A stretch of DNA of 54,698 nucleotides, from NCBI GenBank assembly GCA_047517485.1, contig JAKZSU010000011.1, positions 1-54,698 of the forward strand. The letters are read 5' to 3'. Positions within the stretch are counted from its first letter, which is position 1. Each line of letters begins with the position of its first letter. The position numbers were made by a program, and so were the translations under genes. The notes below the pieces were generated by a model. The model was not told where the DNA came from and did not search any database. It saw nothing but the letters and a program-made list of their open reading frames with translations. The DNA is from Alphaproteobacteria bacterium (lineage in GTDB: Bacteria > Pseudomonadota > Alphaproteobacteria > UBA7887). Shown here in pieces: positions 153 through 32,112 of the stretch.

Positions 153-277
153 CAACTCAGTTTGTTATCGACACGCATCGAGGCGAGGCGTTGCCGGATT
201 CCCGCTGTTCACTGTATTCTCATCCTCGATTTCATGCTCCACTACGATGGTATACCAAGATCGCGAGGACCAGGCCG

Positions 278-3049: not shown

Positions 3050-3074
3050 GAGCAGTGGGCCTCCCTGGCTCCCA

Positions 3075-4439: not shown

Positions 4440-4446
4440 CGGTCGC

Positions 4447-4683
4447 TCAGGCCAAAGTAACCAACGGCTGCCCGGCCATCACCGCATCTTCGTTGTCGGC
4501 ATGAAATTCGGTGATCGTGCCCGCCTTGTCGGCCTTGACCTCGCGAAAGGTCTTCATCACCTCGACCAGGCCGATCACTTCGCCCACCGCGACCTGGTCG
4601 CCGACTTCCTTGAACACCGCTTCTTCCGGCGACGGCTGGCGATAAAAAGTGCCGGGCAACGGCGACATGATTTGACTGGACAC
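4447..4683 (-). CDS. Stand-alone biotin carboxyl carrier protein (78 aa)
   Basis: SPLPGTFY and EVMK biotinylation motif; GTG start. Confidence 0.9.
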   Translation of the reverse strand: MSSQIMSPLPGTFYRQPSPEEAVFKEVGDQVAVGEVIGLVEVMKTFREVKADKAGTITEFHADNEDAVMAGQPLVTLA

Positions 4684-4710
4684 AGGTCTATTCCTGACTT
4701 GAGTGAGAGA

Positions 4711-5448: not shown

Positions 5449-5458
5449 GTCTCGTTCC

Positions 5459-7540: not shown

Positions 7541-7572
7541 GGCGCCCTCACTTCTTCAGAAGTTGTCGTTGA

Positions 7573-9330: not shown

Positions 9331-9437
9331 CGTATGGACTCCCTACACTCTTGGCGGCGCGGCTTGGTTTACCGCCGCCGTGATCTCAGCTTCGCAGTTT
9401 ACGGACTTGTCGGTCATATTTCACCCGCTAAAAGGCA

Positions 9438-11510
9438 TCAACCCGCGGCCGGAACGATCGCCAGGCTGCCGGATGGTTTGCGGCTGACCGTCGCGCCGGG
9501 CCCGACGACCACGGTGGTGAACGAATTTTCGATAATCGCCGGCCCGGCCAACGCGCTATCGGTCGCGAGCTGATCGAACTGACGCACCGTGGCGTCCAAC
9601 CATCCGACATCGGCGAAATAGGCCTGGCGCCGGGTCGCCAGATCGGTGGCGGCGGCGCGTTCCGACAATCCGGCCATCGGCCGATCGCGCAAGCGGCAGC
9701 TGATCCGCGCCGACCAACCGACCACCTCGATCTCCGACAACGGATCCTTGATCGCGAATACTTCTTCATGGGTATCATGAAAATCAGACACCAAGTCTTT
9801 AATATCTTGTTCGTTTTTGAATTCATGCCCGCGCAACGGAACTTCGATCTCCCAGACCTGATGGGGATACCGCGCCTCGGCCATGAACTCGATCGTCTGG
9901 GCGCTCGAGCCGGCGCCCGGGCCATCGGCGAACGCCCGGCAACGGGCGAGCAGATCGGCGAGCAACGTATTGACGGCGGCGCTGTCGAAGGCGTCGCTGG
10001 CGGTGAATTGGGTGGCGCGGAACTGCTGCGTCAGATCGGACATCAGCGCGCCGCCGGCGCTCAGTGCCGCGCCGACATCGGGGATCAGCACCAGCGGACA
10101 GTCGAGCCGCGCGGCGATGCGCTCGCAATTCAACCCGGCGGCGCCACCGCCGCCGATCAACACCGCGCCCGACGGGTCGATGCCCTGATTGATAGTGATG
10201 TCCATGATCGCCTGCACCATGTTCTCGGTGGCGATCTTGACGATCGAGAGCGCCGCTTCCTCGACGCCGAGGCCCATTGTTGCCGCCACATGCTCGGCGA
10301 TCGCGGCACGCGCCGCGTCCACATCGAGCCGCATGCTGCCGCCGAGGAAAAACGCCGGGTCGATATAGCCCAAGGTCAGGCACGCATCGGTCAGGGTCGG
10401 CGCGGTGCCGCCGCGGCCATAGGCCACCGGCCCCGGCACCGCGCCCGCCGATTGCGGCCCGACATGGAGCAGCCCGCCATCATCGATCCACGCCATCGAG
10501 CCGCCGCCGGCACCGATCGAGCGCACCCCGACCGAGGGAAACCCTGTCATGTGGCCGCGATATTCGCCGCCGATCCAGGTCTCGCGCGTCCACGGGATGC
10601 GGCCGCGCCTGACCAGGCTGAGATCGTAGGTCGTCCCCCCGGTGTCGGCGACGATCGCGGTCGAGGCGCCGGCATCGATGGCGGCGAAATGACGCCCGGC
10701 GACCGGCGCCATCGACGGCCCGGAATTGATCAGATGGATCGGCTCGTTGGCCGCGTCGGTGGCGTCGATCACGCCGGCGGCCGAGGTGACGATGAGCACC
10801 CGGCCGCCATAGCCAGCCTCGCTAAGACGCGCCGTCAAGTTGCGCATATAGGCTCCCATCAGCGGCTTGAGCGAGGCGTCGATCGCTGTCGACGAGGCGC
10901 GGCGGTATTCACGTAATGACGGATTGAGGCGGTGCGACAGCGTGTACGGGACTCCCGGCAAATGGTCCTCGAGCAGTTCGCCGATCCGCAATTCATGCGC
11001 CGGATTGACGATCGACCATAGCAGGCAGACCGCGACCGCCTCGACCTCGTTCGGTTTGAGCCGCGCGATGGTCTGGATAACCGCGTCTTCATCGAGAGCG
11101 CGGCTGACAGTGCCGTCCGCCAGCACCCGCTCGGCCACTTCAAAGGTCAGCGCGCGCGGCACGTAGGGGTCGGGATAAGGCACGGTGAAATTGAACACGT
11201 CGGTGCGCCCGCCTTCGCGCAGCACCAGGATATCGGGATGGCCCTCGGTGGTGAGAAACGCGGTGCGCGCGGTATTGCCGGTAATGATCGCGTTGATCGC
11301 CCGCGTCGTGCCGTGAATGAACAGCGAGCCCTCAGCCAGCAGATCGGCCAGATCCTTGGCCATGCTGTCGGCGGCGATTTGCAGACTGTCGAGCACGCCC
11401 AGGATCGGATCGTCTGGAGTTGTCGAGGCCTTGAACATCGAGACCGTGCCGTCGTCCTGCTCGATCAACAAGTCGGTGAAGGTACCGCCGGTATCGACCG
11501 CGAATCTCAT
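9438..11510 (-). CDS. Second hydantoinase/oxoprolinase subunit A (HyuA-like, ATP-binding)
   Basis: DTGGTFTD, HGTT, SGPS, DTGGTTYD, GAGGGS, GPQSAGA. Confidence 0.92.
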   Translation of the reverse strand: MRFAVDTGGTFTDLLIEQDDGTVSMFKASTTPDDPILGVLDSLQIAADSMAKDLADLLAEGSLFIHGTTRAINAIITGNTARTAFLTTEGHPDILVLREGGRTDVFNFTVPYPDPYVPRALTFEVAERVLADGTVSRALDEDAVIQTIARLKPNEVEAVAVCLLWSIVNPAHELRIGELLEDHLPGVPYTLSHRLNPSLREYRRASSTAIDASLKPLMGAYMRNLTARLSEAGYGGRVLIVTSAAGVIDATDAANEPIHLINSGPSMAPVAGRHFAAIDAGASTAIVADTGGTTYDLSLVRRGRIPWTRETWIGGEYRGHMTGFPSVGVRSIGAGGGSMAWIDDGGLLHVGPQSAGAVPGPVAYGRGGTAPTLTDACLTLGYIDPAFFLGGSMRLDVDAARAAIAEHVAATMGLGVEEAALSIVKIATENMVQAIMDITINQGIDPSGAVLIGGGGAAGLNCERIAARLDCPLVLIPDVGAALSAGGALMSDLTQQFRATQFTASDAFDSAAVNTLLADLLARCRAFADGPGAGSSAQTIEFMAEARYPHQVWEIEVPLRGHEFKNEQDIKDLVSDFHDTHEEVFAIKDPLSEIEVVGWSARISCRLRDRPMAGLSERAAATDLATRRQAYFADVGWLDATVRQFDQLATDSALAGPAIIENSFTTVVVGPGATVSRKPSGSLAIVPAAG

Positions 11511-11563
11511 GCTACCATTCCTCTAGACTCGAATATTCGCATCGCCACCGGGGAGACCGACCG

Positions 11564-12469
11564 ATGACCAAGACACTCGCGCCGCTGCCGATCGCCATGT
11601 TGGTCGCGGCGGCGGTCGTCTATGGCCTGGTGTTCTCGTTCAACAAGCTCGCCGCCGGTGCCGGCGCGAGCTATCTCGGCCACGCCTTTTGGCAGACCCT
11701 GATCGCCGGCTTGGCGCTCTACGCGGTCTCGCTGGCGCGCCGCCAGACGGTGAGTTTTCGTTGGCCCTATTTCCGCGCCTACATCGTCGTCGGCGCCACC
11801 GGATTCGGCCTGCCGATGGCGTTGGTGACCCTGGTCAGCACCGAGTTGCCGACCGGCTATGTCTCGCTCGCCTTCGCGCTGTCGCCGACCTTCACCTACT
11901 TCGCCAGTGTGCTGTTTCGCCTCGATCGATTGTCGGGGTTCGGCCTTGCGGGCATCGGGCTCGGATTCGCCGGGGTGGTCATCGTGGTGACCGCGGCGGA
12001 CGCGCTCACCGGCGAGGGCGCGACCGGCTGGTTCCTGCTCACCTTGATCATTCCGGTGATGCTCGCGATCACCAACGTCGCCGCCGTGGTTCTTCGTCCG
12101 CCGGACACCAGTTCGACGGTGATGGGCGCGGGCTTCCTGCTCGGCGCCGCGTTGTCGCTGCTGCCGCTGATGATCGTCACTGGCCAATTTTACGTTCCGA
12201 GCGATCCCGCGACCCTCATACCGACGCTCGGCGCGGCCGCCGTCAATGCGGTCTTTATCGTCTTGTTCGCCGAAATCGTGCGCCGCTGGGGACCGACGTT
12301 CTTCGCCCAGTTCAACTATCTCACCGTGATCGCGGCGATCGGCTGGGCGTACTTGATCTTCGCCGAGCCCCCGGCGCTCATCGTGCTGATCGCACTCGCC
12401 TTGATGGCCGCCGGCGTGGTGATTTCGGAGTTGCGCCACCGCAAGACTAGCGACGAAGCCGCGCCGTAG
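11564..12469 (+). CDS. DMT/EamA family transporter, antisense to flanking genes
   Basis: About ten hydrophobic segments in two repeats; ALSPTFT, GIGLGFAGV, FAQFNYL...W..LIFAE; GGGAGA RBS. Confidence 0.88.
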   Translation: MTKTLAPLPIAMLVAAAVVYGLVFSFNKLAAGAGASYLGHAFWQTLIAGLALYAVSLARRQTVSFRWPYFRAYIVVGATGFGLPMALVTLVSTELPTGYVSLAFALSPTFTYFASVLFRLDRLSGFGLAGIGLGFAGVVIVVTAADALTGEGATGWFLLTLIIPVMLAITNVAAVVLRPPDTSSTVMGAGFLLGAALSLLPLMIVTGQFYVPSDPATLIPTLGAAAVNAVFIVLFAEIVRRWGPTFFAQFNYLTVIAAIGWAYLIFAEPPALIVLIALALMAAGVVISELRHRKTSDEAAP

Positions 12470-14216
12470 CCGCCGCATCGACCGAGCCGTCGGCGGCGAC
12501 CGCCACGCCATAAACATCCGCCGCGCGGTCGCGGCTGACCCAGCCCTCGACGACATCGCGCGCGACCTTCTCCGGCTCGCGGCTCAGCGGGTCGCCGTAA
12601 CCGCCGCCGCCGCAACAGTGCGAGACGATGGTCTCGCCGGTCCGCAAGGTCACCACGGCGCAGTTTTCGGTCGGCGTAAGGTCTCCATTGGCATCGCGTA
12701 TACCCTGATAAGCCGCGCCGCCAAGCCCGCCGCCGCGCACCCCGCGCGCCGGGTTCAAAGTGCCGTCGGAGACGAACGCGACTTCCATCTCGCCGCGCGT
12801 CGGGCCGAACTCGACGAGCATGCCGGGGCCGCCCTTGTGCCGCCCGGCGCCTTCCGAATTCTGAATGAAACGGCGCTGGTGTACGTGCAGCGGATGGCGC
12901 ATTTCGTCGAGCTCGATACTGTCCTGGTAGCACAGCCCGGCGTTGCCGACATGGCCGAGGGTGACCCAGGCATCGGCCTCGGGCGCGCCGGCGCCGCCGG
13001 TCATCGCCAGGAACAATTGATTGACGTAGCGCTCGTCGCGCACCGGATCGTACCCCGAAACCACGCCGACCGACGCCGGCAGGATCGCCCCCGCCTCGGC
13101 CAGGCCGATGCCGTCGTCGAGCTCGGCGATCGCCGCCTGGACGGCGTTGGCCACCCGATCGGCGACGTTGGTGGTGGCGACTGAGCAACTGGTCGGATGC
13201 CGGGGGATGCCGCACACCGCGTTCTCGCGCAGCTTGACGTCGAGGCGGCGGAACGCGCCGGCGTTCTTCGGCACGCTGGGATCGATCGAATTGAACACGC
13301 CGATCATCGCCGCGGTCCGCGCGCACGCCTCGGACAGGTTCAACCCGCACGGCAGCGCGTCCATATTGTCGGTGAGATCGACCGCTATGCGCCCCCGGTC
13401 GGCATCGACATCGACCTTGACGGTAATCGGAATGCCGTCGTCGGGGGTCCCGGGCACCGGGTCGTGGCAGCTGGTCCAGGTCGCTCTCCCGCTGGGGATC
13501 TTGGCCACCGCGTTGACCATCCGGCTTTCGGAATAATCGAACCACTGCCCGGTGAAACGCTCCAGCGTGTCCCAACCGACTTCGTCGGCGAGGCTGAGCA
13601 GTTCGCGCTCGCCGATGCGCGCCGCGCCGACCATCGCCAGATAATCGCCCCACCATTGCTCGGGCACCCGGATGCGGACCATGCACATGCGGATGACGTC
13701 GCCGATATTCTCGAAATTCTCCTGCACCTTGACCGCCGGAAAGATCAGCGCGCCTTCCTCGTAGACGTCGCGCGCCGCGCCCATGTAGGTGGTCGGCTGC
13801 GAATTGCCGCAATCGGCCTGATGCGCCTTGGCGAGCACCGTGTAGCGATGGCGCCCCTCGGCGTCCATCACCGGCACCAACAGGGTATGATCGGCGGGGT
13901 GCGAGCAGCCGTGATACGGCGAATTGTGCAGGTACGCATCGCCGCGCTTGGGGTCGGGATGAAACTCGAGCATCGATTTCGCCATCAGATCTGGCCCGCT
14001 CAATACGTGGATCGGCAGACTTTCCGCGGTCGCCAGCAACTGCGCGTCGGCGGTGATGATGCAGCAGGAAAAATCGCGGGCGATATTGAGCACCCCCGAG
14101 CGCCCGGTGCGCAGCAGGGTGTTCGCCATTTTGCGGGCGATCCCCTCGAGCCGATTGTTCAGGATCGACAATTGCACGCCGTCGATCGGTTTCGCCGCCG
14201 CCTGGCCGTCCATCAT
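12447..14216 (-). CDS. Second hydantoinase B/oxoprolinase subunit (HyuB-like)
   Basis: RTGRSGVLNIARDFS, NSPYHGCSHPAD, AHQADCG, YEEG, GAGRHKGG, GGGGYGDP. Confidence 0.92.
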   Translation of the reverse strand: MMDGQAAAKPIDGVQLSILNNRLEGIARKMANTLLRTGRSGVLNIARDFSCCIITADAQLLATAESLPIHVLSGPDLMAKSMLEFHPDPKRGDAYLHNSPYHGCSHPADHTLLVPVMDAEGRHRYTVLAKAHQADCGNSQPTTYMGAARDVYEEGALIFPAVKVQENFENIGDVIRMCMVRIRVPEQWWGDYLAMVGAARIGERELLSLADEVGWDTLERFTGQWFDYSESRMVNAVAKIPSGRATWTSCHDPVPGTPDDGIPITVKVDVDADRGRIAVDLTDNMDALPCGLNLSEACARTAAMIGVFNSIDPSVPKNAGAFRRLDVKLRENAVCGIPRHPTSCSVATTNVADRVANAVQAAIAELDDGIGLAEAGAILPASVGVVSGYDPVRDERYVNQLFLAMTGGAGAPEADAWVTLGHVGNAGLCYQDSIELDEMRHPLHVHQRRFIQNSEGAGRHKGGPGMLVEFGPTRGEMEVAFVSDGTLNPARGVRGGGLGGAAYQGIRDANGDLTPTENCAVVTLRTGETIVSHCCGGGGYGDPLSREPEKVARDVVEGWVSRDRAADVYGVAVAADGSVDAAATARLRR

Positions 14217-20171: not shown

Positions 20172-22463
20172 CTACGCGGTCAGGCGGAAATAGAGCATCG
20201 GTAACTGCTCGGGCAGCCTTTCCAGCTTGTCGAACTGCATCACGTTGCGCCGGCCGAAGATGCGGCTGAGGTAACTATCGCCGCCGGAATCCAAGCCGAC
20301 GCAGAACACGTCGATGCCATCCTGCGCGAGACCATGGATGACCCGGCGGGCATCCTCGACCAGATAGGTTCGATCCTGCACGTCGATGTCGGACGGCTCG
20401 CCGTCGGTGATCACCAGAAGCAGCCGGCGATGGGTCTGTTGGCGCTTGAGATCCTGGGCGGCATGACGCATCGCCGCGCCGATACGGGTGGAATAGCCGC
20501 CGGTCAGGCCGGCGAGATACGACCGCGCGGTCTCGCCGTAGGGCTTGTCGAAATCCTTGATGCGATAATAGCGAACGTCGTCGCGCCGATTCGAACAAAA
20601 CGCCGCGATCGCGAACGGATCCCCCAGGCCCGCCATGGCGTGGGCGAGCAGGGCGGTGGCTTGGCGCTCCATATCGATAACCGTCTCGGAAGATCCGATG
20701 ATCTTGTCCTTGGTCGATTCCGAGACGTCGAGCAAGACCTGGACCGACAAGTCGCGATGGCGCCGTTCGAAACGGCCATAGATCCTTGTATCGGGGGTCT
20801 CGCCGATGCGCCGGCTGATCATCGCGCTGATCGAGGCATCGATATCGAGAAAATCGCCTTCCTGTTGGCCGCGTAGGCGTTGCGGCCGGCTTACTTTTGC
20901 CGAGGTGATCAGCGCCTTGATGCGATTCACCACATAGGCGTGGCGGTCCAGGATATCGTCGATCCGATGGGCCGGGCCTTGCGTCGGCGGGTACTCGACC
21001 ACGGTGCTCCACTCGGGTCGTTCGCGACCGCTGGCGTAATCATATTCGGGATAGCGGGCGACCGGGATGCCGTCCTGCTCGGCAAGGTCCACATTGACCC
21101 GCCTGGCGTCGTCCGCGTCGCTTTGTTGGTTTTCCTCGCGCTCGCGATCAGGCGGCGTCGGATCGTCGTCATCCTGTTCCTCGATGTGAACGGAATCGAA
21201 CAATTGTTCGGCGTCCATGACCTCTGGGGGAACATCGTCGCCAAAATCCCACAGCCCCAGATTATCGTCGCGATACGCCGGTTCGACGATATAGGCCCGG
21301 GCGTTGAACTGCACCCGCATCTGACCGATATCGTTGCCTAGAAGATTACCCACCTCACGGCTTATGCCAGGATCGTCCCAGCGATCCCGGCAGCTATGGA
21401 ACATGTCCCGACCCTTGCTGATCCAACCGTCGACATCGCTGAAATCAGCGTCGATCAACGCGTGCGACAGGCGCGCCAATAGGCTGGGCGCCGTCATCAG
21501 ACCGGTCGACTGGGCGATATGGAACGGCAGCCACAGCCGGCGAAGACCGGGGAACCGGTGCATGGCGAGCTGTTCGACCCGCGCGTCCTCGATCAGCGAC
21601 ACCAGTGCGACCTGGACCGGTTTGAGTTTGGCGATCGGGAATTGCGGCCCGCCAAAGGTCATATGGGCGCCAATATGGGCGAGTGCGGCGCGGTAAAGAT
21701 CTTTTGCCTGCTCACCGCGAAATCCCGGGTAGGCGGTGGGAATGCGGATGATCCCGGTCGAATACCCGGCGCGCCGGCGAATATAATCCGGCGCCGTCAC
21801 CGGCGGCTCGCGCAACGGCAGCCGGATGCCCCAAAGGGCATTGAGAAAGGCCTTCAGCTCGACCGCCAAATCGGCGTAGACGACTTCGTTCGACTCGCGT
21901 TCCAGCCAAACCTCGGCCTCCGGATCGGCAAACGAGAAGTACTCCAGCCGCCGTTCCTTATCGGTTCCCGACAGACGGACGCCGGCCATGATCCAAGCTT
22001 CCAGGCGCGACACGTTGAGTTTCGCCAACAGGGCATCCATCTGGGCCAGAACCGGCGGTACCGATTCCGGTGCCAGATCGGCGAACCGTTCCATCAACCC
22101 GAGCCAGGACCCGAAGCGGCTGGCGTCGCCGTCAAGGCGTCGCGCGGCGACAACCGCGGCGGCGGGCAAATGTTCCGCCGCCCCGACCCCGGCCTTGATG
22201 GCAAAAGAGGAGACGATGTCGGCTAAGGAAAATGCCCGCTCGGGACCCACCAAGCGCGCCACTTCGGGGGAATAGCGGATAAAGGACTGCACCACGGCCG
22301 AACCGTACCCCGCCTGATCGAGCTTGCGGCAAGCCCGCAGCCAGGGCGCGCCGAGGGGTTCGGGAAAATGGCGCAGGGCCGCGCCAGTCAATTGGCTGTC
22401 GCCGTCCAGCGCATCACCCGGGGCGACGATTTTGAGAAAGTCCTTCGATTCCTTGTCGGCCAT
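20172..22463 (-). CDS. CbbO/NorD-like vWA-domain adaptor protein
   Basis: SLIEDARVE, YRDDN, RYPEYDY, MIDAS LLDVSES...T...TDGEP, YLVEDAR. Start at MADKES; the track extension to 22679 runs through a MITE. Confidence 0.88.
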   Translation of the reverse strand: MADKESKDFLKIVAPGDALDGDSQLTGAALRHFPEPLGAPWLRACRKLDQAGYGSAVVQSFIRYSPEVARLVGPERAFSLADIVSSFAIKAGVGAAEHLPAAAVVAARRLDGDASRFGSWLGLMERFADLAPESVPPVLAQMDALLAKLNVSRLEAWIMAGVRLSGTDKERRLEYFSFADPEAEVWLERESNEVVYADLAVELKAFLNALWGIRLPLREPPVTAPDYIRRRAGYSTGIIRIPTAYPGFRGEQAKDLYRAALAHIGAHMTFGGPQFPIAKLKPVQVALVSLIEDARVEQLAMHRFPGLRRLWLPFHIAQSTGLMTAPSLLARLSHALIDADFSDVDGWISKGRDMFHSCRDRWDDPGISREVGNLLGNDIGQMRVQFNARAYIVEPAYRDDNLGLWDFGDDVPPEVMDAEQLFDSVHIEEQDDDDPTPPDREREENQQSDADDARRVNVDLAEQDGIPVARYPEYDYASGRERPEWSTVVEYPPTQGPAHRIDDILDRHAYVVNRIKALITSAKVSRPQRLRGQQEGDFLDIDASISAMISRRIGETPDTRIYGRFERRHRDLSVQVLLDVSESTKDKIIGSSETVIDMERQATALLAHAMAGLGDPFAIAAFCSNRRDDVRYYRIKDFDKPYGETARSYLAGLTGGYSTRIGAAMRHAAQDLKRQQTHRRLLLVITDGEPSDIDVQDRTYLVEDARRVIHGLAQDGIDVFCVGLDSGGDSYLSRIFGRRNVMQFDKLERLPEQLPMLYFRLTA

Positions 22464-22471
22464 CGGCTCTA

Positions 22472-22733
22472 GAGCACGTCTTGCCTTGATGGAATCGGAT
22501 TGACCGCGTTCCCGCATCCCGTGGCTAGGCGCGCGGCGCCGCACGATGTGGGTGGGCACGCTAAGCCGCGCAACAACGCCACGGGATGCGGGATCGCGGC
22601 CTTCGGTGGGGAATATTGGCTTTTCGTGGGCGTTGCGACCGTCGGCCGATGCGCCGCATCGCCCGTCGCGCCGCGCCACCTCGAAAAGCCAATTTGTCCC
22701 ATCAAACCGTTCCCATCAAGGTAACACGTGCTC
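22472..22733. mobile_element. MITE-like palindromic element, 262 bp
   Basis: 32-bp terminal inverted repeats (22472-22503 vs 22702-22733; 27/32 by manual alignment) enclosing two internal hairpin arms (22504-22599, 22615-22693). Confidence 0.8.
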
Positions 22734-22738
22734 CGGCG

Positions 22739-23548
22739 TCAGGCGCAGGCGGCGATCGCCGAGCCGAGGGCCCGGCGGATGTCGGGGTCGTCGGTGATCG
22801 GCAACACCAAGCCGATCTCGCACGCCTCGCCCAGCGGGATACCGCGTCCCACCAATTGGCCGACATGGATCAGCATGCGGGTCGAGGCGCCTTCATCGAG
22901 TCCGTGTCCCTTGAGATTGCGCGACCGCTCGGCGATCGAGACCAGTTTGGCGGCCAGGGGTTTTTCGACGCCCGCTTCGTGGGCGATAATCTCGGCCTCG
23001 AGGTCAGCCGCCGGATATCCGAAATCGATGGCGCCGAACCGTTGCTTGGTCGACTCCTTCAAGTCCTTGAGGACGCTCTGATATCCCGGGTTATAGGAAA
23101 TCACGAGCTGAAAATCCGGGTGCGCCTTCAAGACTTCGTTCTTCTTTTCCAGCGGCAATATTCTGCGATCATCGGTCAGCGAGTGAATGACCACCGTGGT
23201 ATCCTGTCTCGCTTCGACGATTTCATCGAGATAGCAGATCGCGCCGTGGCGCACCGCCAAGGTCAGCGGACCGTCGTGCCAGACCGTGCCGTCGGCATCG
23301 AGCAGGTAACGGCCCACCAGATCGGACGCAGTCATGTCCTCGTGGCACGACACGGTGATCAGCGGTCGTTCGAGACGCCACGCCATATGCTCGACGAACC
23401 GGGTCTTTCCGCAGCCGGTGGGTCCCTTGAGCATGAGCGGCATGCGGTCTTGATAGGCCGCCTCATAATGCGTTGTTTCGTTACCGATCGGGCGATAATA
23501 GGGCTCGTCGGCAATCAAATAGTCTTTTAACGGCATCACGCGAATCAC
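22739..23548 (-). CDS. cbbQ: CbbQ/NirQ/NorQ family AAA+ ATPase (MoxR group)
   Basis: EPYY, Walker [23 protein letters not shown], Walker [21 protein letters not shown]. Start may be 23536. Confidence 0.9.
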
Positions 23549-23616
23549 GATCCTGGTATGGACGCGGAGAAAGAAGCTTATCGCCCTAGCGATCCGAGGA
23601 CCACGGGATTGATTGC

Positions 23617-23666
23617 CGACGGCGCCGGGGAAGCCGGGACAATGGCCCTGCCTCCCCGCGCCGTCG
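23617..23666. terminator. GC-rich stem-loop between amiE and cbbQ
   Basis: CGACGGCG-C-CGGGGA...TCCCCG-CGCCGTCG; no clear U-tract, so read-through into cbbQ is plausible. Confidence 0.55.
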
Positions 23667-23674
23667 CCGTAAGT

Positions 23675-24715
23675 TTATCGATGGGTACCGGTTTTTTCGT
23701 TCGGAATGCCATCCATTTCGCATTCCTCGGTGCCCACCGTACTGCGGGTGATCCCCTCGACCATCTCGCGAGTGCCATCGGGATCGGTGATCCACTTCTT
23801 GTAGAAGTCGAACGGGCATTCGGCGACGCCCTGATCGCCTTCGCCGGAATTGATCAGGCCGGTGTAGCCGCGATGCAGAAGCTTGAACAAATGGTTCTCG
23901 GATTGTCCGTTCTTGCGGGCGTCGCGGATCGCCGACGTCGAAAGCTGGGCGTATTGGATGCCCATCTCTTCCTCGGCACAGGCGCCCAGGGTTCGACCGT
24001 CGAAGCCGATGATGGAGGAATATCCGAAATACGAATAGACACCGTCAAACCCGGTCGCATTGGCCACCGCGACATAGACGTTGTTCGACCAAGCCATGGC
24101 CTTCGCCATCGTCACTTGTTGTTCCTTAGCCGGGTACATATAGCCCTGGCAGCGGATAATCAGCTCGGCGCCCTTCATCGCGCAGTCGCGCCAGATCTCC
24201 GGATAGTTTCCGTCATCACAAATGATCAGGCTGATCTTCAAGCCCTTGGGACCATCGCTGACGTAGGTGCAATTGCCGGGATACCAGCCCTCGATCGGCA
24301 CCCACGGCATGATCTTGCGATACTTCTGCACGATCTCGCCTTGATCGTTCATCAGTATGAGGGTGTTGTAGGGCGCCTTGTTGGGATGTTCCTCGTGACG
24401 TTCGCCGGTCAGCGAAAAAACGCACCAGACCTTGGCTTTGCGGCAGGCTTCGGCGAAAACTTCGGTTTCCGCGCCGGGGCATTCCGACGCGGTCTCGTAC
24501 ATTTCCTTTTCGTCGTACATGATCCCGTGGGTGCTGTATTCGGGAAAGATCACCAGATCCATTCCGGGAAGGCCAACCTTCATCCCTTCCATCATCTCGA
24601 CAATCTTTCGGCAATTGTCGAGAACGTCTTCCTTGGTGTGCAGCCGCGGCATCTTATAATTGACGACCGCTACGCCAACAGTGTCTTTACTGCTGGAAAT
24701 ATCGCCGTGATACAT
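23675..24715 (-). CDS. amiE: Aliphatic amidase (nitrilase superfamily)
   Basis: N-terminus [24 protein letters not shown]; catalytic E (FPEYS), K (YRKI) and C ([13 protein letters not shown]); GGAGG RBS. Confidence 0.96.
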
Positions 24716-25362
24716 GGTTGCCTCCGTTATTCATATGATGCTTGGGGTTCATTTTCTCGTTCATCCAAACCGCCGTGGGCGGACCAACGAGTTCGTCTGT
24801 TGAATCACCGTCCTAGCCATTCGCCGCTATCGGGTGATCGAAATGCGGCGCGATCAGTGATCCCGCCGCTATCAAAGCCCTTCTCCATTGCGGTCGACGC
24901 GCCACGCAAACGCGTGCCGCCGGTAACCGCCAGAAAATCGAAAAGTGAAACTAAAGACGCCCACTCGCTGCGGCTGAGCCGCATTTGATGGCTTGGACAC
25001 TCGCTTAACTCCGGTCAACGGGCAAGAAGTGTCGGCGCTGACGCCCTACCCCATCAAAATTTTCATAGCAAATCTTGAATCGTGTGCCGTTAATTTAAGA
25101 TCACAAAGCGGATCGTGTCAATTTCGAAGTCGCGCGCGCACTCGACGCTCTCCTCGCATCGCTCATGCCATGATGACGCCTCGGACGGCGCGGCGCTGTC
25201 GGGCCAGCGGTACCGAACCTGGCACATTTTCAATTTCGTACAACCCATGGATATCATGATATAGTTTATGAAATTGGGGGATGCACGCCTTTGTAAGAAG
25301 TCGGGAAAACGAGAAAACGCGGGCGCGCGGATACAAGCTAGGTAGTGCAGAGAGAGACTGTC

Positions 25363-26484
25363 ATGGCGAGGGAACTCCAGGGAAGCGAGCCTTGGCGCGT
25401 TGGGGCGCTGTGGTCCCAGACCGGCGTGACCGCTGTCATTGAGGAGAGTCAACTTAAGGGCACGCTGCTGGCGATCGGAGAGATCAACGAAGCCGGCGGA
25501 ATCAACGGCCGCGAACTGGTGCCGGTGATTTACGATCCACTGTCGGAGCCGACAAATTTTGCCCGTTTGGCGGACCGCCTGCTGACCGAGGACGACGTTA
25601 CCACAATTTTCGGTTGCTACACGTCGAGCAGCCGCAAGGCGGTGCTGCTGGTGGTTGAGCGCCGCAATGGCCTGCTGTGGTACCCGACCCTGTACGAGGG
25701 CTTCGAGTATTCCCCGAACGTCATCTACACCGGCGCGGCGCCGAACCAGAACAGCATCAAACTGGCCGAATACATGATGGAGCTTTACGGCCCGCGTTTC
25801 TTCTTCGTCGGCTCCGATTACATTTATCCGCGCGAATCCAACCGCATCATGCGCGAGCTTCTGGACGCGCGCGGTGGGACCGTGGTGGGCGAGCGTTATC
25901 TCGATCTTCTCGCTGGACCGGAAGATTTCCGACCGGTCATGCGCGACATAGACCAGACCCGACCGGACGTCGTCTTCTCGACCGTGGTCGGCCAGGCGAC
26001 CGCCCATCTTTACCAATGTTATGCCGATGCGGGGCTCGACCCCAAGGTGACGCCGATCGCCAGCTTGACCACCACAGAAGCGGAAATTGGACTAATGGGC
26101 GCCGATGTCGGCGAGGGGCACATCACCGCCGCCGCCTATTTCGAAGGTGTGGAAACCGAAGCCAACAGCGCGTTTGTCTCCAAATATAAGAAAAGATTCG
26201 GCCCCGGCGAGGCCACCAACATGTGCGTCGAGGCGGCGTATTTCCAAGTCCACATATTCGCCAAGGCCTTGGCCGCGACCAACACGATGGATACCGACAT
26301 TCTCCGGCCGATGGTGCTGGGCAGCGAGTTCAACGCCCCCCAGGGCCGCATCAGTATCGACGGCTCCAATAGCCATACCGATCTATGGACCAGGGTCGGC
26401 AAAGCGAACCGGCGCGGACACTTCGATATCGTCAGCGAGTCGCAAATGGCGGTGAAGTCGGATCCCTACCTGATTAGTCTTTGA
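25363..26484 (+). CDS. amiC: AmiC-like cytoplasmic amide sensor / negative regulator (PBP fold)
   Basis: VGALWSQTGVT, GCYTSSSRK, YPTLYEGFEYS, APNQNS, GSDYIYPRESN; no signal peptide; adjacent to amiR. Confidence 0.88.
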   Translation: MARELQGSEPWRVGALWSQTGVTAVIEESQLKGTLLAIGEINEAGGINGRELVPVIYDPLSEPTNFARLADRLLTEDDVTTIFGCYTSSSRKAVLLVVERRNGLLWYPTLYEGFEYSPNVIYTGAAPNQNSIKLAEYMMELYGPRFFFVGSDYIYPRESNRIMRELLDARGGTVVGERYLDLLAGPEDFRPVMRDIDQTRPDVVFSTVVGQATAHLYQCYADAGLDPKVTPIASLTTTEAEIGLMGADVGEGHITAAAYFEGVETEANSAFVSKYKKRFGPGEATNMCVEAAYFQVHIFAKALAATNTMDTDILRPMVLGSEFNAPQGRISIDGSNSHTDLWTRVGKANRRGHFDIVSESQMAVKSDPYLISL

Positions 26485-26500: not shown

Positions 26501-27076
26501 ATGCCTTCTCTGGAAAGTTTGCGGCAGCTTCGCGTTTTGGTCGTCCATCCGGCCGATCGCGACGGCGACGGCATCATTCGTCATCTCCAAGGTATCGGTT
26601 GCCGGGTCGAGGGGATGTGGCCGCCCCCAGCCCGGTTGCCCGACAGTCTCGATGTCGTGTTCTACTTGATCGACGACCAGACCCGGCGCTCGCTCCCCTG
26701 GTTCGCCGACCTGCCGCCCGCCGCCATCGTCGCTATCGTAGACCATGGCACGGCCGACGTGCTTGGCCTGCTTTCGGACTGTAGTCCCCAAGCGGTGGTG
26801 AGCAAGCCCGCCGACTCCTTCGCGATTTTGTCCAGCTTGATCTTGGCCCGGCGCATTTATCGCTACGAGGATCGGTTGCAAAACAAACTCAGAAAGCTCG
26901 AAGAAACCATCCGCTCGATACGCACCGTGGAAAAGGCGAAGTCGATCCTCATGAAAAGCAAAAACATCGCGGAAAAGGAAGCATACGAGCAAATTCGAAC
27001 CCACGCGATGAACCGGAGATTGCCCATAGGCAAGGTTGCGTCTACGATTATTGATGCAAGCGATTTAATAGTTTAG
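26501..27076 (+). CDS. amiR: AmiR-like ANTAR-domain antitermination regulator
   Basis: Pseudo-receiver N-terminus (LR.LRVLVVHP..DG), coiled coil, ANTAR VEKAKSILM...E.EAY..IR..AMN.R. Confidence 0.9.
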   Translation: MPSLESLRQLRVLVVHPADRDGDGIIRHLQGIGCRVEGMWPPPARLPDSLDVVFYLIDDQTRRSLPWFADLPPAAIVAIVDHGTADVLGLLSDCSPQAVVSKPADSFAILSSLILARRIYRYEDRLQNKLRKLEETIRSIRTVEKAKSILMKSKNIAEKEAYEQIRTHAMNRRLPIGKVASTIIDASDLIV

Positions 27077-27278: not shown

Positions 27279-28550
27279 ATGAAAATCGAAAGACGGTCGT
27301 TTCTGAAGGGCACTGCCGCGGTCGGCGCCGGTGCGGCGGCCTTGTCGGTTACCAAGGCTCCTTACGGGTTTATACGCAATGCCGCCTTTGCGGCCACCGA
27401 TACGGTTGAGGTCGGGGTCCTGTTTTCGCTGACCGGCGGCCTGTCGATCATCGAGAAATCGCTTGCCGACGCGACGCTCATGGCGATCGCCGAAATCAAT
27501 GACGCTGGCGGCGTGCTGGGCAAGCAAATCGTACCGATCCTCGAAGACGGCGCCAGCGACGCCAAGACCTACAACGAAAAAGCCAACAAGCTGGTCATTC
27601 AGGACCGGGTTCCGACGGTGTTCGGGTCCTACACATCGGCCAGTCGCAAAGCCGTGCTGCCGGTTTTCGAGAAGCGCAAGAACCTCTACTTCTATCCGAC
27701 CTATTATGAAGGCTTCGAGTGCTCGAAGAACGTCGTCTACACCGGCGCGGTTCCCAACCAGCAGCTCAGCAATTACATCCCTTGGATTATCAAGAACTTG
27801 AACAAGAAGAAGTTCTTCATCGTCGGGTCGAACTACATCTACCCGCGCGAGATGGCCAAGGTCTGCAAAATCCTGGTCGAACAAGCCGGTGCCGAGTGGA
27901 TCGCCGACGAATATCTCGAACTCGGGCATTCCGAGTGGGGCGCGATGGTCAAGAAGATCAAGGACAGCGGCTGCGACGCGGTTTTGTCCAACGTGGTTGG
28001 CGACTCGGTTGTCGCGTTCTACCGCGAGTTCGGCAACCAGGGCCTCAAACACGACCAACTGCCGATCTGCGCGACGGTGACGTCGGAGATCGAGATCGCC
28101 GCAATGGGCGCGGAATACGCGGCGGGCAGCTTTACCTCGTTCCCGTATTTCCAAGCCATCGATACCGACGCCAACAATTCGTTCATCGAACGCTATCGCA
28201 AGTACGTCAACGATTCCAACGCGGTGACCCATCACGCGCTGGAAAGTTCGTATTTCCAAGTCTTCCTGTGGGCGCAGGCGCTCGAGAAGGCCGGCGAGGA
28301 GACCCCGGCGGCGATCCGCGAGGGTGTGAAGGGGCAAGAATTCGACGCCCCCAACGGCCACGTCAAAATCGACGCGGAAAACCTCCATGCCTGGCTTACG
28401 CCGCGCATCGCGCAATGGGATTCGAATGGCCAGGGCGTGATCATCGACGAATACCCGGCGCCGATCATGCCGCTACCATACGTCGCCTACGGCGAAACCG
28501 AATCCGATCTGTTCTGTAAGGAAGGCGGACTCGACACCAGTAAGCTCTAG
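27279..28550 (+). CDS. urtA: Urea/short-amide ABC transporter substrate-binding protein (UrtA/FmdD-like), Tat-exported
   Basis: Twin-arginine RRSFLK; VGVLFSLTG, EDGASD, TSASRKAVLP, YEGFECS, GSNYIYPR. Confidence 0.88.
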   Translation: MKIERRSFLKGTAAVGAGAAALSVTKAPYGFIRNAAFAATDTVEVGVLFSLTGGLSIIEKSLADATLMAIAEINDAGGVLGKQIVPILEDGASDAKTYNEKANKLVIQDRVPTVFGSYTSASRKAVLPVFEKRKNLYFYPTYYEGFECSKNVVYTGAVPNQQLSNYIPWIIKNLNKKKFFIVGSNYIYPREMAKVCKILVEQAGAEWIADEYLELGHSEWGAMVKKIKDSGCDAVLSNVVGDSVVAFYREFGNQGLKHDQLPICATVTSEIEIAAMGAEYAAGSFTSFPYFQAIDTDANNSFIERYRKYVNDSNAVTHHALESSYFQVFLWAQALEKAGEETPAAIREGVKGQEFDAPNGHVKIDAENLHAWLTPRIAQWDSNGQGVIIDEYPAPIMPLPYVAYGETESDLFCKEGGLDTSKL

Positions 28551-28560
28551 CCAATAAAGT

Positions 28561-28597
28561 GCCTCCGGCCGGGGAGTAAGCTCCTTGGCCGGAGCGC
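28561..28597 (+). terminator. Stem-loop after urtA
   Basis: CTCCGGCCGGGGAG-TAAG-CTCCTTGGCCGGAG. Confidence 0.6.
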
Positions 28598-28631
28598 CTA
28601 AGAAAACGAATAGGGCAAGGCTGGGTTCACC

Positions 28632-29525
28632 ATGTGGGAGACAGTTTTCATTGGATTGAGCGTGGGTTCGATCCTGCTCCTCGTCGCGCTTGGCCTGACC
28701 ATCACCTACGGCGCCATGGGCGTGATCAACATGGCGCACGGTGAGCTCGTCATGGTCGGCGCCTACACGACGGTGATGATGGGGACTTATTTTGGCCTGA
28801 ATATATTCTTTGCCATTCCCGCCGCTTTTCTGATGGCCGCCTTCGTCGGGTTGATCATCGAGCGGCTGGTGGTGCGCAATCTTTACGGGCGTCTGCTCGA
28901 TACATTGTTGGCCACCTGGGGCGTGGCGATCCTGATCCAGCAAGCGGTGCGGCTGGAATTCGGCCTCGCGTTCTTCGGCATTCATATCGATGGTCTTGGA
29001 GTTGGCCTACAAAGAGTGGATGTGCCGACGATCCTGCGTGAAACGTTCGAGGTTGGGGGCGTCGTCGTTCAGCCCTACCGTAGTTTCATCATTCTGTTGA
29101 CCGTCGCCCTGGTCGGCCTGACCTGGCTGTTGATGTACCGGACCTCGTTCGGCACCCAGGTCCGGGCGATTATGCGCAATCCGAAAATGGCCGCCGCCTG
29201 CGGCATTGACGTCACCCGGATCAACGCCTTGACCTTCGCCTACGGCTCCGGCCTGGCCGGGGTCGCGGGGGTGATGATGTCGGGCTTCAAGACCGTCAGC
29301 CCGGGCATGGGCACGTCGTTGGTGGTCGATGGATTCATGGTCGTCGTGGTCGGCGGCATCGGTAGCCTGTTGGGTTCGGTGGTGTCGGCGGGGTTCCTGG
29401 GACAGCTCAACGGGATATTCGCGACCTTGTCGAACGACATCCTCGCGCGCGCCGTGGTGTTCGGCGCGGTCATCCTGATTATCGTCTGGCGCCCCAACGG
29501 GCTATTCAATTTCCGGGGACGGTAG
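28632..29525 (+). CDS. urtB: Urea ABC transporter permease UrtB
   Basis: GVINMAHGE, LYGRLLDTLLATWG, VDGFMVVVVGG. Confidence 0.9.
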   Translation: MWETVFIGLSVGSILLLVALGLTITYGAMGVINMAHGELVMVGAYTTVMMGTYFGLNIFFAIPAAFLMAAFVGLIIERLVVRNLYGRLLDTLLATWGVAILIQQAVRLEFGLAFFGIHIDGLGVGLQRVDVPTILRETFEVGGVVVQPYRSFIILLTVALVGLTWLLMYRTSFGTQVRAIMRNPKMAAACGIDVTRINALTFAYGSGLAGVAGVMMSGFKTVSPGMGTSLVVDGFMVVVVGGIGSLLGSVVSAGFLGQLNGIFATLSNDILARAVVFGAVILIIVWRPNGLFNFRGR

Positions 29526-29528
29526 GCG

Positions 29529-30665
29529 ATGTCGACCAAGAGAAAACTCGAATTCTTGGCCTACGCCATCTTCATTGTGATTACCTTCCTGATGCCGTTG
29601 TTCCTCGACGTGTTCTGGCTGAACCGTATCGCCAAGTACCTGGTGTACGGCATGCTGGGGGTCGCTATTTCGCTGTCCTGGGGCTATGCGGGCATCCTGA
29701 ATTTGGGCCAAGGGCTGTTTTTCGGCGCCGGGGCTTATATGCTGGCGATGTCGCTCAAGCTCGCCAGCGCGACCAGTTTGCAACAGGGCTCCGACACCCC
29801 GGTGCCCGATTTTATGTTGTGGAACGCCGAGCCGGGATCGCTCACCGACCTCTGTTGCATTACCAAGGTGTCTTTCCTGTGGATCCCGTTTCAGGCGCAG
29901 TGGTTCGGCATCTTCATGGGGTTCGTCCTACCCGTGGCCCTGGCCTTCATTCTGGGGAACATCATATTCCGCAAGCGTATTTCGGGCGTTTTTGTCGCTA
30001 TCATTACCCTCGCGACAGTGCTCTTGGTGCGTCTCTTGATGATCGATTTCCAGCCCTTGACCAATGGATTCAATGGCCTGACCGATCTCGGATGGTTCAC
30101 CATGGGCGGGATAGAATTCGACCCCTATATGGTCGAGACCTATTACGTAGTCGCGATTTCGCTTGCCGTGGTGCTGATCGCGACGCGCTGGCTGGTCAGT
30201 ACCCGCGCCGGTCTGGTCCTGCAAGCGGTGCGCGATGACGCCAACCGGGCGCGCTACCTCGGCTTCGACGTATCGTCGTATCAAATTTTCTTCTTCTGCG
30301 TATCGGCGCTGATCGCCGGCTTTGCCGGAATGCTTTACGTGATCGCGGCCGAGTTCGCCTCGCCGACTTTCATGGACCTTGCCTTCAGCATCACCATGGT
30401 GGTTTGGGCCGCGGTGGGCGGGCGGTCGTCTCTGCTCGGCGCCTGCATCGGGGCGATACTGATCAATCTTATCGAAGCGACAGTCAGCGAGACCGAAATG
30501 TTCGTCGAGGCGTGGCAGGCAATTATCGGATTGCTGTTCGTCGGCGTCGTGCTGTTCCTGCCCCGGGGCTTGGCGGGGTTGGCGAGCGACATCACCGACC
30601 GGGTGCTCGGCGCTGGCAGACAATCGAGACGGACTCTCGAACAAGAAGCGCCGGCGGGAGAATAG
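29529..30665 (+). CDS. urtC: Urea ABC transporter permease UrtC
   Basis: WGYAGILNLGQG.FFG.GAY, PDFMLWN, WAAVGGR. Confidence 0.9.
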   Translation: MSTKRKLEFLAYAIFIVITFLMPLFLDVFWLNRIAKYLVYGMLGVAISLSWGYAGILNLGQGLFFGAGAYMLAMSLKLASATSLQQGSDTPVPDFMLWNAEPGSLTDLCCITKVSFLWIPFQAQWFGIFMGFVLPVALAFILGNIIFRKRISGVFVAIITLATVLLVRLLMIDFQPLTNGFNGLTDLGWFTMGGIEFDPYMVETYYVVAISLAVVLIATRWLVSTRAGLVLQAVRDDANRARYLGFDVSSYQIFFFCVSALIAGFAGMLYVIAAEFASPTFMDLAFSITMVVWAAVGGRSSLLGACIGAILINLIEATVSETEMFVEAWQAIIGLLFVGVVLFLPRGLAGLASDITDRVLGAGRQSRRTLEQEAPAGE

Positions 30666-30673
30666 GTGGCGCC

Positions 30674-31417
30674 ATGGAAGCTTTGAAACTCGACGGACTC
30701 GGGGTTGGATTTGGTGGCTTCAAGGCCGTCGATAATTTCAGCATGACCGTCGCGGAAGGCGAGCTGCGGGTTCTGATGGGGGCCAATGGCGCCGGCAAGA
30801 CCACCTTGATCGATCTGATCAGCGGCAAGACGAAATCAACCGAAGGCAAGGTCTTCCTGCACGACAAGGACATCACCAACTGGCACGAGCATAAGATCGC
30901 GCGCGAGGGGGTCGGCCGCAAATTCCAAATTCCCACGGTGTTCCGCGAACTTACGGTGCGGGAAAATTTCGAGGTCGCGGGATTTCGCAATCGTGGGGTG
31001 CTCATGAATGCGGGGCCGCGCCACAGGAAAGTATCCGCCAAGCGAGTCGAGGAAGTCATCGACTTGGGCAATCTTCGCGAAAAGGAAAGCGACCGGGCCG
31101 GCAATCTTTCGCACGGCGAAACCCAATGGCTCGAGCTCGGCATGGTGCTGGTGCAGGATCCCAAGGTCATCCTGCTGGATGAACCCTCGGCCGGGATGAC
31201 GGTGCAAGAGACCTTGAAAACATCGCAAATTATCAATGACCTGAAAGGGCAGCGCACCCTCGTCGTCGTCGAGCACGACATGGCGTTCGTGCGCCAGATC
31301 GCCGAAATGATCACGGTGATGCATCTCGGCAAGGTGCTGGCCGAGGGAACGATCCAGGACATCGAGAAAAATCAGGCGGTGAAGGATGTCTATCTCGGCC
31401 GCGGGGGCATCGGCTGA
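30674..31417 (+). CDS. urtD: Urea ABC transporter ATP-binding protein UrtD
   Basis: FGGFKAV, GANGAGKTT, GVGRKFQ.P, LSHGETQWLE.GM, VEHDM. Confidence 0.9.
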   Translation: MEALKLDGLGVGFGGFKAVDNFSMTVAEGELRVLMGANGAGKTTLIDLISGKTKSTEGKVFLHDKDITNWHEHKIAREGVGRKFQIPTVFRELTVRENFEVAGFRNRGVLMNAGPRHRKVSAKRVEEVIDLGNLREKESDRAGNLSHGETQWLELGMVLVQDPKVILLDEPSAGMTVQETLKTSQIINDLKGQRTLVVVEHDMAFVRQIAEMITVMHLGKVLAEGTIQDIEKNQAVKDVYLGRGGIG

Positions 31418-32112
31418 TGCTCACGTTCGATCGCCTCAACAGCTTCTATGGCGGCAGCCACATCCTGCACGATCTCAGTTTCACGATCGAAAAAGGCACC
31501 ATTCTCACGGTCATCGGTCGCAACGGCGTCGGCAAGACGACGCTGCTGAAGACCATCCTCGGGCTCACCGACTCGTCGACCGGCAGCATCAAGCTCAACG
31601 GCGAGGAAATTGGCGGCAAGCCGACTTTCGAACGCGCCCGCATGGGGATCGGGTATGCACCGCAGGGGCGCGAAATTATTCCCGATTTCACCGTCCGCGA
31701 GAATATTTTAATGGGCGGCTTCGCGCGTGGAAACGGGTCGCCCAGCATCCCCGATGTAGTGCCCGAACTTTTTCCCTATCTGATGGAGAATCTCGGCCGC
31801 GCCGGAGGGCTATTGTCGGGCGGACAGCAACAGCAACTTGCAATCGCCCGCGCGCTCGCGGCCGAGCCGAGCTTGCTTTTGCTCGACGAACCGACCGAGG
31901 GCATTCAACCGAATATCGTCGAGCAGATCGAGGAAACCATCCAGGTGCTCAATCAAAAACTCGATTTGACCATCATCCTGGTCGAACAGAACCTCGAATT
32001 CGCGCGCTCCGCCAGTCATTCGTTCGTGATGATGGAAAAAGGCCAAATCGTGGCGAACGGCGACACCGATGCCCTGACCGACGATGTCGTGGCGAAGCAC
32101 ATGACGATCTAA
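31417..32112 (+). CDS. urtE: Urea ABC transporter ATP-binding protein UrtE
   Basis: YGGSHIL, GRNGVGKTT, PQGREI, LSGGQQQQLAI, DEPTEGIQP. Confidence 0.92.
   Translation: MLTFDRLNSFYGGSHILHDLSFTIEKGTILTVIGRNGVGKTTLLKTILGLTDSSTGSIKLNGEEIGGKPTFERARMGIGYAPQGREIIPDFTVRENILMGGFARGNGSPSIPDVVPELFPYLMENLGRAGGLLSGGQQQQLAIARALAAEPSLLLLDEPTEGIQPNIVEQIEETIQVLNQKLDLTIILVEQNLEFARSASHSFVMMEKGQIVANGDTDALTDDVVAKHMTI

Follow-up and report, generated by a model that had tools for sequence, protein, structure and literature searches.

To our knowledge, CbbQO, in which a MoxR AAA+ ATPase (CbbQ) works with an adaptor carrying a domain of the von Willebrand factor A (vWA) type (CbbO), is known only as an activase of Rubisco. 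Passages of Tsai et al. (2015; PMC4660213) report that CbbQO needs the C-terminal H-K/R motif of the Rubisco large subunit, and that removal of one or two C-terminal residues of this subunit, or the addition of one alanine, abolishes both activation and stimulation of the ATPase. According to the same passages, the residues of the MIDAS (metal ion-dependent adhesion site) of CbbO and one acidic residue on the surface of Rubisco are also required. The discussion of that paper, as excerpted, has the MIDAS domain of these MoxR/vWA remodellers gripping a carboxylate of the client; for Rea1/midasin and RavA-ViaA no C-terminal dipeptide rule is seen in that discussion. Here we describe a pair of CbbQ-type and CbbO-type genes (hereafter Q and O) that lies beside amiE, a gene for an aliphatic amidase, in a stretch of 54,698 nucleotides from an alphaproteobacterium of the lineage UBA7887 (assembly GCA_047517485.1, contig JAKZSU010000011.1; the whole stretch is called the window below). 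Comparative evidence gives good support to a CbbQO-type machine with a new client. We consider it likely that the pair is a CbbQO-type MoxR AAA+/vWA remodeller with AmiE as its client, and it would probably serve to repair or activate a second enzyme, one unrelated to Rubisco.

The amiE-Q-O locus

The three genes are co-oriented on the minus strand of the window with intact open reading frames (ORFs), as the original prediction had stated. The amiE gene (23675..24715) encodes an aliphatic amidase of 346 residues that matches the model NF009802 with 704.6 bits (cut-off 427) and CN_hydrolase with 168 bits. The nitrilase-type catalytic residues E59, K134, E142 and C166 are present, in a numbering which we take to be that of the Pseudomonas aeruginosa enzyme. 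Downstream lies the gene for Q, a CbbQ-type MoxR AAA+ ATPase (22739..23536; AAA_5 121 bits and CbbQ_C 103 bits). Its ORF spans 22739-23548, with a GTG at 23548, and the likely start is the ATG at 23536, giving 265 residues. The third gene encodes O, a CbbO-type adaptor with matches to VWA/VWA_2 (20172..22463). This ORF spans 20172-22679, and the ATG at 22463 was taken as the most likely start because relatives align from there, giving a protein of 763 residues. The Walker A and B motifs of Q (GPTGCGKT and CYLDE) are intact and the MIDAS of O is complete (D579-x-S581-x-S583, T659 and D687; these five residues do not vary among the 34 homologues aligned), both as predicted. The Q and vWA genes had been thought to abut; they are instead 275 bp apart and are separated by a structured, MITE/REP-like repeat (miniature inverted-repeat transposable element or repetitive extragenic palindrome; 22464..22738, assigned to neither strand).

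The linkage to amiE is not peculiar to this genome. The 80 closest amiE loci, taken from one genome per species, were searched with the proteins of the window and the pair was found in 65. In 41 of these the order amiE-Q-O runs directly downstream on one strand, in nine the pair is further downstream on the same strand (with urease genes intervening in eight, which are betaproteobacterial), in 13 it is convergent and in two only O is present, at a contig end; the remaining 15 loci have none. The carriers are Alpha-, Beta- and Gammaproteobacteria, one Pelagibacter metagenome-assembled genome (MAG) and one MAG labelled Verrucomicrobia. The locus most closely related to that of the window comes from Pelagibius litoralis DSM 21314, and the culturable carriers also include Ancylobacter spp. 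Because these loci had been chosen via amiE, a sample blind to amiE was also taken, in which 400 genomes of the phylum were searched with Q and with the amiE model. Apart from the source genome, amiE was found in 23 of the 400, with Q directly downstream in six; in the remaining 17, no Q lies within 1.5 kb of amiE. Seen from the Q side, 49 loci among the matches listed (68 further Q matches of the phylum sample were left out) comprise six linked to amiE, 20 linked to Rubisco together with seven short-flank loci in the same clade, eight linked to norB and eight that belong to an 'orphan' clade. All six sampled pairs in the amidase-type part of the tree directly follow amiE.

The cassette is also found on plasmids, in 34 PLSDB records, and its phylogeny does not track taxonomy. 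On pRsp8C3a, a conjugative plasmid of Rhizobium etli 8C-3 (locus L195, 316507-330663), the order is urtBCDE - amiE - Q - O - acs, the last gene encoding an acetate-CoA ligase, so that the cassette makes up a complete route from acetamide to acetyl-CoA. The public annotation of this locus goes no further than 'CbbQ/NirQ/NorQ/GpvN family' for Q and 'VWA domain-containing protein' for O.

The C-terminus of AmiE

The AmiE of the window ends in ...EKTGTHR. The alignment of this protein with PDB entry 2plq (642 bits) stops at residue 341 of 346, and the last five residues, including the HR, therefore lie outside the aligned part. Among 87 AmiE sequences, an H-[KR] end was found in all 72 that have Q or O in the fetched locus, and the 15 without the pair in the fetched locus comprised ten with other ends (nine NY and one HA) and five with H-[KR]. 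If the tail marks a client of the pair, these five exceptions should hold the pair elsewhere in the genome and the NY genomes should not. Each of the five exceptions was found to encode an amidase-type O of full length at another place in its genome, with Q adjoining (four of four without the unpublished G405); O is matched at 39-46% identity, over residues ~30-762 in four genomes and 194-762 in the fifth (G404). Five NY-tailed genomes were searched for O, of which four gave no match and the fifth has a second amiE, with an HR end, directly before Q-O.

The blind sample gave the same picture, with all six AmiE that are followed by Q ending in HR and the remaining 17 ending otherwise. Five of these 17 genomes were searched with O and yielded only NorD-type matches (to the C-terminal half), CbbO adjacent to Rubisco or short C-terminal fragments (G323); in eight others a genome search found no Q-like gene. 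Genome-wide pair status was obtained for the five H-[KR] exceptions, the five NY genomes and the 17 sampled genomes. When all the data are pooled, 77 AmiE with an H-[KR] end have the pair in the genome and 27 with other ends lack it, and no case is discordant.

The AmiE compared are 73-92% identical overall and the last two residues are the sole alignment columns that separate the two groups (90% vs 20%). In an AmiE tree built without these two residues there are at least seven changes of tail, four of them forced by supported branches, and pair status shifts each time. As background, ~3 of ~875 non-amiE ORFs in the same loci have an H-[KR] end; as a control, 19 of 20 Rubisco large subunits encoded beside cbbQ have one. 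The tail is the strongest new evidence and provides independent support for AmiE as the client of the pair, as had been proposed in the original prediction.

Relationships of Q and O

Q is ~70% identical to solved CbbQ, against which it scores 412 bits (5c3c) and 380 bits (6l1q), compared with 310 bits against NorQ (9qh4). In tblastn comparisons O is 25-35% identical to Rubisco-linked CbbO over the N-terminal 370-480 residues, and it matches solved NorD (159 bits) over residues 431-761 only. The motif AHxxAH ... EDARVE ... H in the N-domain is common to O and Rubisco CbbO and is absent from NorD.

Maximum likelihood trees were built from 109 Q and 97 O sequences and rooted on NorQ/NorD. Both were quick searches in which support was by Shimodaira-Hasegawa-like approximate likelihood ratio test (SH-aLRT) only and long-branch warnings were given, and the O tree used the model LG+G4 without a mixture model. 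In both trees the amidase-linked and Rubisco-linked proteins form one clade apart from NorQD (100% SH-aLRT in the O tree). The Rubisco-linked O proteins form a clade of 24 rows (100%) that excludes the O of the window; the nearest neighbours of this clade are betaproteobacterial amidase-linked proteins (99%), and the Q tree agrees on the placement of the Rubisco-linked proteins (99%). The pair of the window thus falls outside Rubisco-linked CbbQO in the trees of both proteins. In the best trees the Rubisco type lies nested within the amidase type. As a firm claim this was rejected, since a single amidase-type O clade is not rejected by an approximately unbiased (AU) test (ΔlnL 15.5, p 0.29), and with this p value the claim is limited to the amidase and Rubisco types being the closest relatives of each other.

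The 'orphan' Q/O clade (L128-L133, L135 and L136; O mostly ~690-708 residues) falls between NorQD and the joint clade of the amidase and Rubisco types. Within 6 kb these loci have neither amiE nor Rubisco nor norB, and a screen of the neighbouring genes for H-[KR] ends gave none that was consistent.

Architecture of O

In an AlphaFold model of O, made from a 34-row alignment (mean predicted local distance difference test, pLDDT, 83.6), residues 20-211 form helical repeats and residues 226-410 a conserved alpha domain; an acidic disordered linker (413-462), a beta hairpin 'finger' (466-491) and the vWA domain (499-762) follow, and residues 1-22 are also disordered. The best Foldseek match of the model is NorD's vWA domain (9qh6_G, E 2.3e-18), and the MIDAS domains of Rea1 match as well. 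Such a 'finger' is read as inserting into the AAA+ ring in a passage of Kahle et al. (2023; PMC9976466). The alpha domain carries the invariant residues H263, H267, E292, D293, R295, E297 and H315; Rubisco CbbO has this domain too and NorD lacks it. When residues 212-412 (window 21228-21830) were folded alone the pLDDT was 92, and a Foldseek search of the PDB with this isolated domain gave no match (best E 0.3). The alpha domain is a candidate site of tail recognition.

A zincin-like peptidase fold was considered for the motif of the N-domain and is unsupported, there being no PDB match. A protein atlas pointed weakly to CobT N-domains (score 0.91), which we treat as a lead only. An alignment search for an acidic residue specific to pair-linked AmiE, as a candidate contact for the MIDAS, gave none, only the last two columns being discriminating. 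Prediction of a complex of AmiE with residues 212-763 of O and Mg gave scores of 0.02 and 0.00 (mark 0.32), which weigh on neither side of the question of binding.

ATPase genes after amiE

The AmiB protein of the P. aeruginosa amidase operon was reportedly described as Clp-like by Wilson in 1995. In a review AmiB is called 'poorly described' and is hypothesised to be a chaperone (PMC12591593). The original prediction had read the present locus as a non-orthologous replacement of AmiB by a MoxR-type machine. In seven of the 17 sampled loci without the pair, a Clp-like ATPase of 320-356 residues with AAA_2 and ClpB_D2-small domains lies directly after amiE (L148, L152, L153, L155, L157, L163 and L164, at ~2550-3680 in each). 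These genes are candidates for AmiB, likened to it by its description, and support the replacement. Further support comes from the sample as a whole, in which the gene behind amiE encodes an AAA+ protein in 13 of 23 cases, the proteins being of two different kinds. AmiE encoded beside AmiB-like genes have tails of the type ...GKEKxAx and no H-[KR], and a third class of AmiE, encoded beside fmdA with no ATPase, ends in NY; with three classes of tail (H-[KR], GKEKxAx and NY), the AmiE tails sort by helper context. At one locus (L181, G136:C10:136000-148500) an amiE with the tail TA, an AmiB-like gene, Rubisco with the tail HR, cbbQ and cbbO are all present in ~9 kb.

Expression and the repeat between Q and O

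In metatranscriptome run X1 a single contig of 2405 nt (22680-25084) holds the leader, amiE, the gap of 138 bp and cbbQ. Coverage in runs X2, X4 and X5 takes in amiE and a part of cbbQ; the four RNA runs stem from two studies. The X1 contig ends (25084) ~7 nt past the -10 hexamer of a promoter-like site, which is the only strong one upstream of amiE. The site (TTGACA-18-TAAATT, 25121..25092, minus strand) falls in the leader and divergent promoter region of amiE (24716..25344, minus strand), and such sites are no commoner here than in shuffled sequences. The leader extends ~370 nt upstream of amiE and probably holds the target of AmiR; a search of the whole window against Rfam matched no family, so that no known leader RNA for AmiR is found there.

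The gap between Q and O is ~30 bp in relatives. The repeat that occupies it here has a length of ~265 bp and is strongly self-pairing (fold -172.7 kcal/mol, z -10.8). It has 73 matches in the source genome (3.69 Mb in 262 contigs, 92.5% complete), of which at least 40 are near full length, at 78-92% identity, on other contigs. Its features suggest a MITE/REP-like element that has inserted into the operon.

Role and client of the pair

By analogy with CbbQO and NorQD, one O adaptor would sit on a CbbQ-type hexamer and use its vWA/MIDAS site to bind an acidic side chain of the AmiE hexamer. The machine would make a further contact with the exposed His-Arg at the C-terminus of AmiE, and the enzyme would be loosened as ATP is hydrolysed. 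In nitrilase-family amidases a C-terminal arm wraps the neighbouring subunit near the active site. The tail would extend this arm in AmiE, and if the machine pulls on the tail the pocket could open and free a dead-end species at Cys166. The most likely outcome would be the reactivation of AmiE that is trapped there, as it might be by amides that are released poorly, urea-like ones among them, with assembly of AmiE as a near alternative. The operon would be switched on together with amiE under the control of AmiC/AmiR. Slow inhibition of Pseudomonas AmiE by urea-type compounds is said to occur, although this could not be confirmed in the literature searched; the urea/amide importers and urease encoded here, and the presence of urease in 15 of the 65 pair-bearing loci, suggest that inhibition of this kind may be relevant.

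Several points weigh against AmiE being the client of such a machine. A look through the literature searched turned up no interaction, ATPase or phenotype data on the pair. The solved AmiE from other organisms are active enzymes, and ten of the 23 sampled amiE loci have no AAA+ gene next door; as AmiE needs no metal and many AmiE have no AAA+ gene nearby, a helper is not generally required. The correlation of the tail with the pair is one among related sequences, with four well-supported contrasts for which the floor of a sign test is p = 0.125, and pair status is uneven, as five non-H-[KR] loci (L044, L045, L060, L076 and L081) were judged on flanks of 1 to 8 kb only. Contigs of O are found in X1 only (one of the four RNA runs) and Q and O are split by the 275-bp repeat, so that co-expression of O is not established. 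Contigs from RNA libraries may include DNA, and they can neither prove one transcript nor show absence.

The alternative that survives best has the same client and a different job, in which the pair would fold or assemble, regulate or disassemble the AmiE hexamer in the manner of maturation factors such as NorQD or RavA-ViaA. This is no less compatible with all of the evidence from linkage and from the tail. In portions of two papers (PMC9976466; PMC13036017) NorQD, which is closely related, is described as a maturation factor, and the one article found to mention the pair, which does so in passing, suggests a role in 'assembly/activation' (PMC13209695, 2026). We nevertheless consider such a role rather unlikely. 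Both the trees and the N-domain place the pair closest not to NorQD but to Rubisco CbbQO, which repairs a finished enzyme, and AmiE has no cofactor to insert, both amidases being given as metal-free in an excerpt of PMC10781810. Furthermore, recognition of a C-terminal dipeptide implies that the chain is already complete.

It is also conceivable that amiE is a mere neighbour and that the client is another product of the locus, such as the urease, the amide/urea ABC importer or AmiC/AmiR. The setting offers some encouragement for this, since urease genes, which follow the importer, and two Urt-like transporters lie within 12 kb in the window, and urease genes stand between amiE and Q-O in the eight betaproteobacterial loci mentioned above. 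The nickel enzyme had indeed been put forward as an alternative client in the original prediction. That proposal has fared poorly: UreC is encoded in just the 15 of 65 pair-bearing loci noted above (in a sample drawn via amiE and biased to it) whereas, from the Q side, every one of the six sampled amidase-type pairs directly follows amiE. The ends of the urease subunits encoded here are LR and GA, no H-[KR] end is found on these subunits or on AmiC, AmiR or the binding protein of the window, and AmiE is the only protein in which tail and pair vary together. We therefore regard another client from this locus as very improbable.

Slightly less probable still is that the H-[KR] tail and the pair have simply been inherited together in one mobile amide-utilisation cassette, without physical recognition of the tail. 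The location of the cassette on plasmids and its departure from taxonomy imply that joint transfer is common, and statistical independence is limited. Among AmiE as similar as these, however, co-inheritance must contend with the confinement of the discriminating columns to the last two residues and with the single genome in which the HR copy is accompanied by the pair and a second, NY copy is not. The same dipeptide is, moreover, experimentally required by the sister machine acting on Rubisco, as stated in the passages of Tsai et al. (2015; PMC4660213). Finally, almost no weight can be given to the view that the pair is a standard activase of Rubisco (CbbQO) or maturation pair of NO reductase (NorQD) which has come to lie beside amiE by chance, for although Q closely resembles solved CbbQ and public annotation uses the labels CbbQ/NirQ/NorQ/GvpN family and VWA domain protein, the absence of Rubisco and NO reductase that had been remarked on in the window extends to the whole 92.5%-complete genome (no RuBisCO_large match, no match to a NorB query that hit eight loci elsewhere, and a single CbbQ_C match, which is the Q of the window), the linkage recurs in Alpha-, Beta- and Gammaproteobacteria, and the pair stands outside the Rubisco-linked and NorQD clades.

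Neighbouring genes

Upstream of amiE and divergent from it are genes for AmiC/AmiR-type regulation. The first (25345..26484, plus strand) encodes an AmiC-like cytoplasmic amide sensor of 379 residues (Peripla_BP_5 458 bits, with the UrtA model below cut-off) and the second (26501..27076, plus strand) encodes AmiR, an ANTAR antiterminator of 191 residues (AmiR_N 99.7 bits and ANTAR 54.9 bits). An amiC-like gene at 45% identity or more is present in 43 of the 80 closest amiE loci. Beyond amiR lies the urea/short-amide ABC importer that had been noted beside the amidase cluster (27279..32112, plus strand), which consists of a binding protein with a TAT signal (Peripla_BP_5 481 bits and TAT_signal), two permeases (BPD_transp_2) and two ATPases (ABC_tran). 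At the other side of the window, positions 1-14216 hold two hydantoinase/oxoprolinase A/B pairs together with biotin-carboxylase and carboxyltransferase genes, a further neighbourhood for the catabolism of nitrogen compounds. A second nitrilase-family amidase is encoded on another contig of the source genome (G000:C79:2267-3145); it scores 216 bits against the amiE model, which is below the cut-off, and is formamidase-like.

Implications

In the full texts searched (supplements and Tsai 2020 PNAS being outside the scope) nothing was found on an H-K/R tail common to the two enzymes, on a sister relation between the pair and Rubisco CbbQO or on alternation with AmiB, and the word amidase does not occur in the CbbQO/NorQD literature searched, save for an unrelated genome survey (PMC11585279). 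If AmiE is the client, a sister machine would act on a cofactor-free hydrolase via the same dipeptide, and its mode of recognition would be transferable. CbbQO-type machines would also gain a second client, and one that is easily assayed, because amidase activity can be followed by a simple colorimetric assay. The presence of an ATPase, AmiB, in amidase operons is a loose end of some 30 years' standing, which would be explained by two types of AAA+ protein filling one position.

The findings also bear on the origin of Rubisco activases. Tentatively, and as a set of propositions that we would not yet expect to hold in full, the C-terminal His-Lys/Arg may be a portable client tag of CbbQO-type machines and ATP-driven repair of active sites a general strategy that extends to a hydrolase; the Rubisco activases may share a recent ancestor with, or have been recruited from, an amidase-repair system of heterotrophic proteobacteria; and AmiE may have gained an AAA+ helper twice independently, once as the Clp-like AmiB and once as the MoxR/vWA pair. 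In practical terms, annotation could be mended, as the labels CbbQ/NirQ/NorQ family, NorD-like and generic vWA can lead to wrong conclusions when autotrophy or denitrification is read from a genome. Because aliphatic amidases serve as biocatalysts in industry, a dedicated reactivating factor could matter for their use.

Comparison with known systems

The nearest described systems are the CbbQO of Acidithiobacillus ferrooxidans (Q1O1 and Q2O2) and Halothiobacillus (CsoCbbQ/O). As here, Q has AAA_5 and CbbQ_C domains and O is a protein of ~760-770 residues with a homologous N-region, an acidic linker and a vWA domain at the C-terminus whose MIDAS is full, and the client ends in H-K/R, as pair-linked AmiE does. 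The difference lies in the client, which is Rubisco in those systems, whereas the neighbour and presumed client here is an amidase of the nitrilase superfamily. NorQ/NorD, which serves the insertion of FeB into the cytochrome c-dependent NO reductase (cNOR; PDB 9qh4-9qhg), likewise combines a MoxR AAA+ protein with a vWA partner, and the vWA domain and 'finger' of O match NorD. This likeness is confined to the C-terminal half of O, however; NorQD forms a separate clade and is encoded with norCB, which is not the case here.

The resemblance to the amiEBCRS operon of P. aeruginosa is one of gene content and position. There too an AAA+ gene, amiB, comes directly after amiE, and the AmiC/AmiR regulators are common to both. 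In the gene order given in part of PMC12591593 these regulators follow within amiEBCRS, whereas here their genes are divergent from amiE. The AmiB-like genes encode AAA_2 and ClpB_D2-small domains and have no vWA partner, in contrast to the AAA_5 and CbbQ_C domains of Q. More distantly, Rea1/midasin and RavA-ViaA also bring together an AAA+ ring and a MIDAS domain, as the pair described here would do, although their clients and domain organisation differ.

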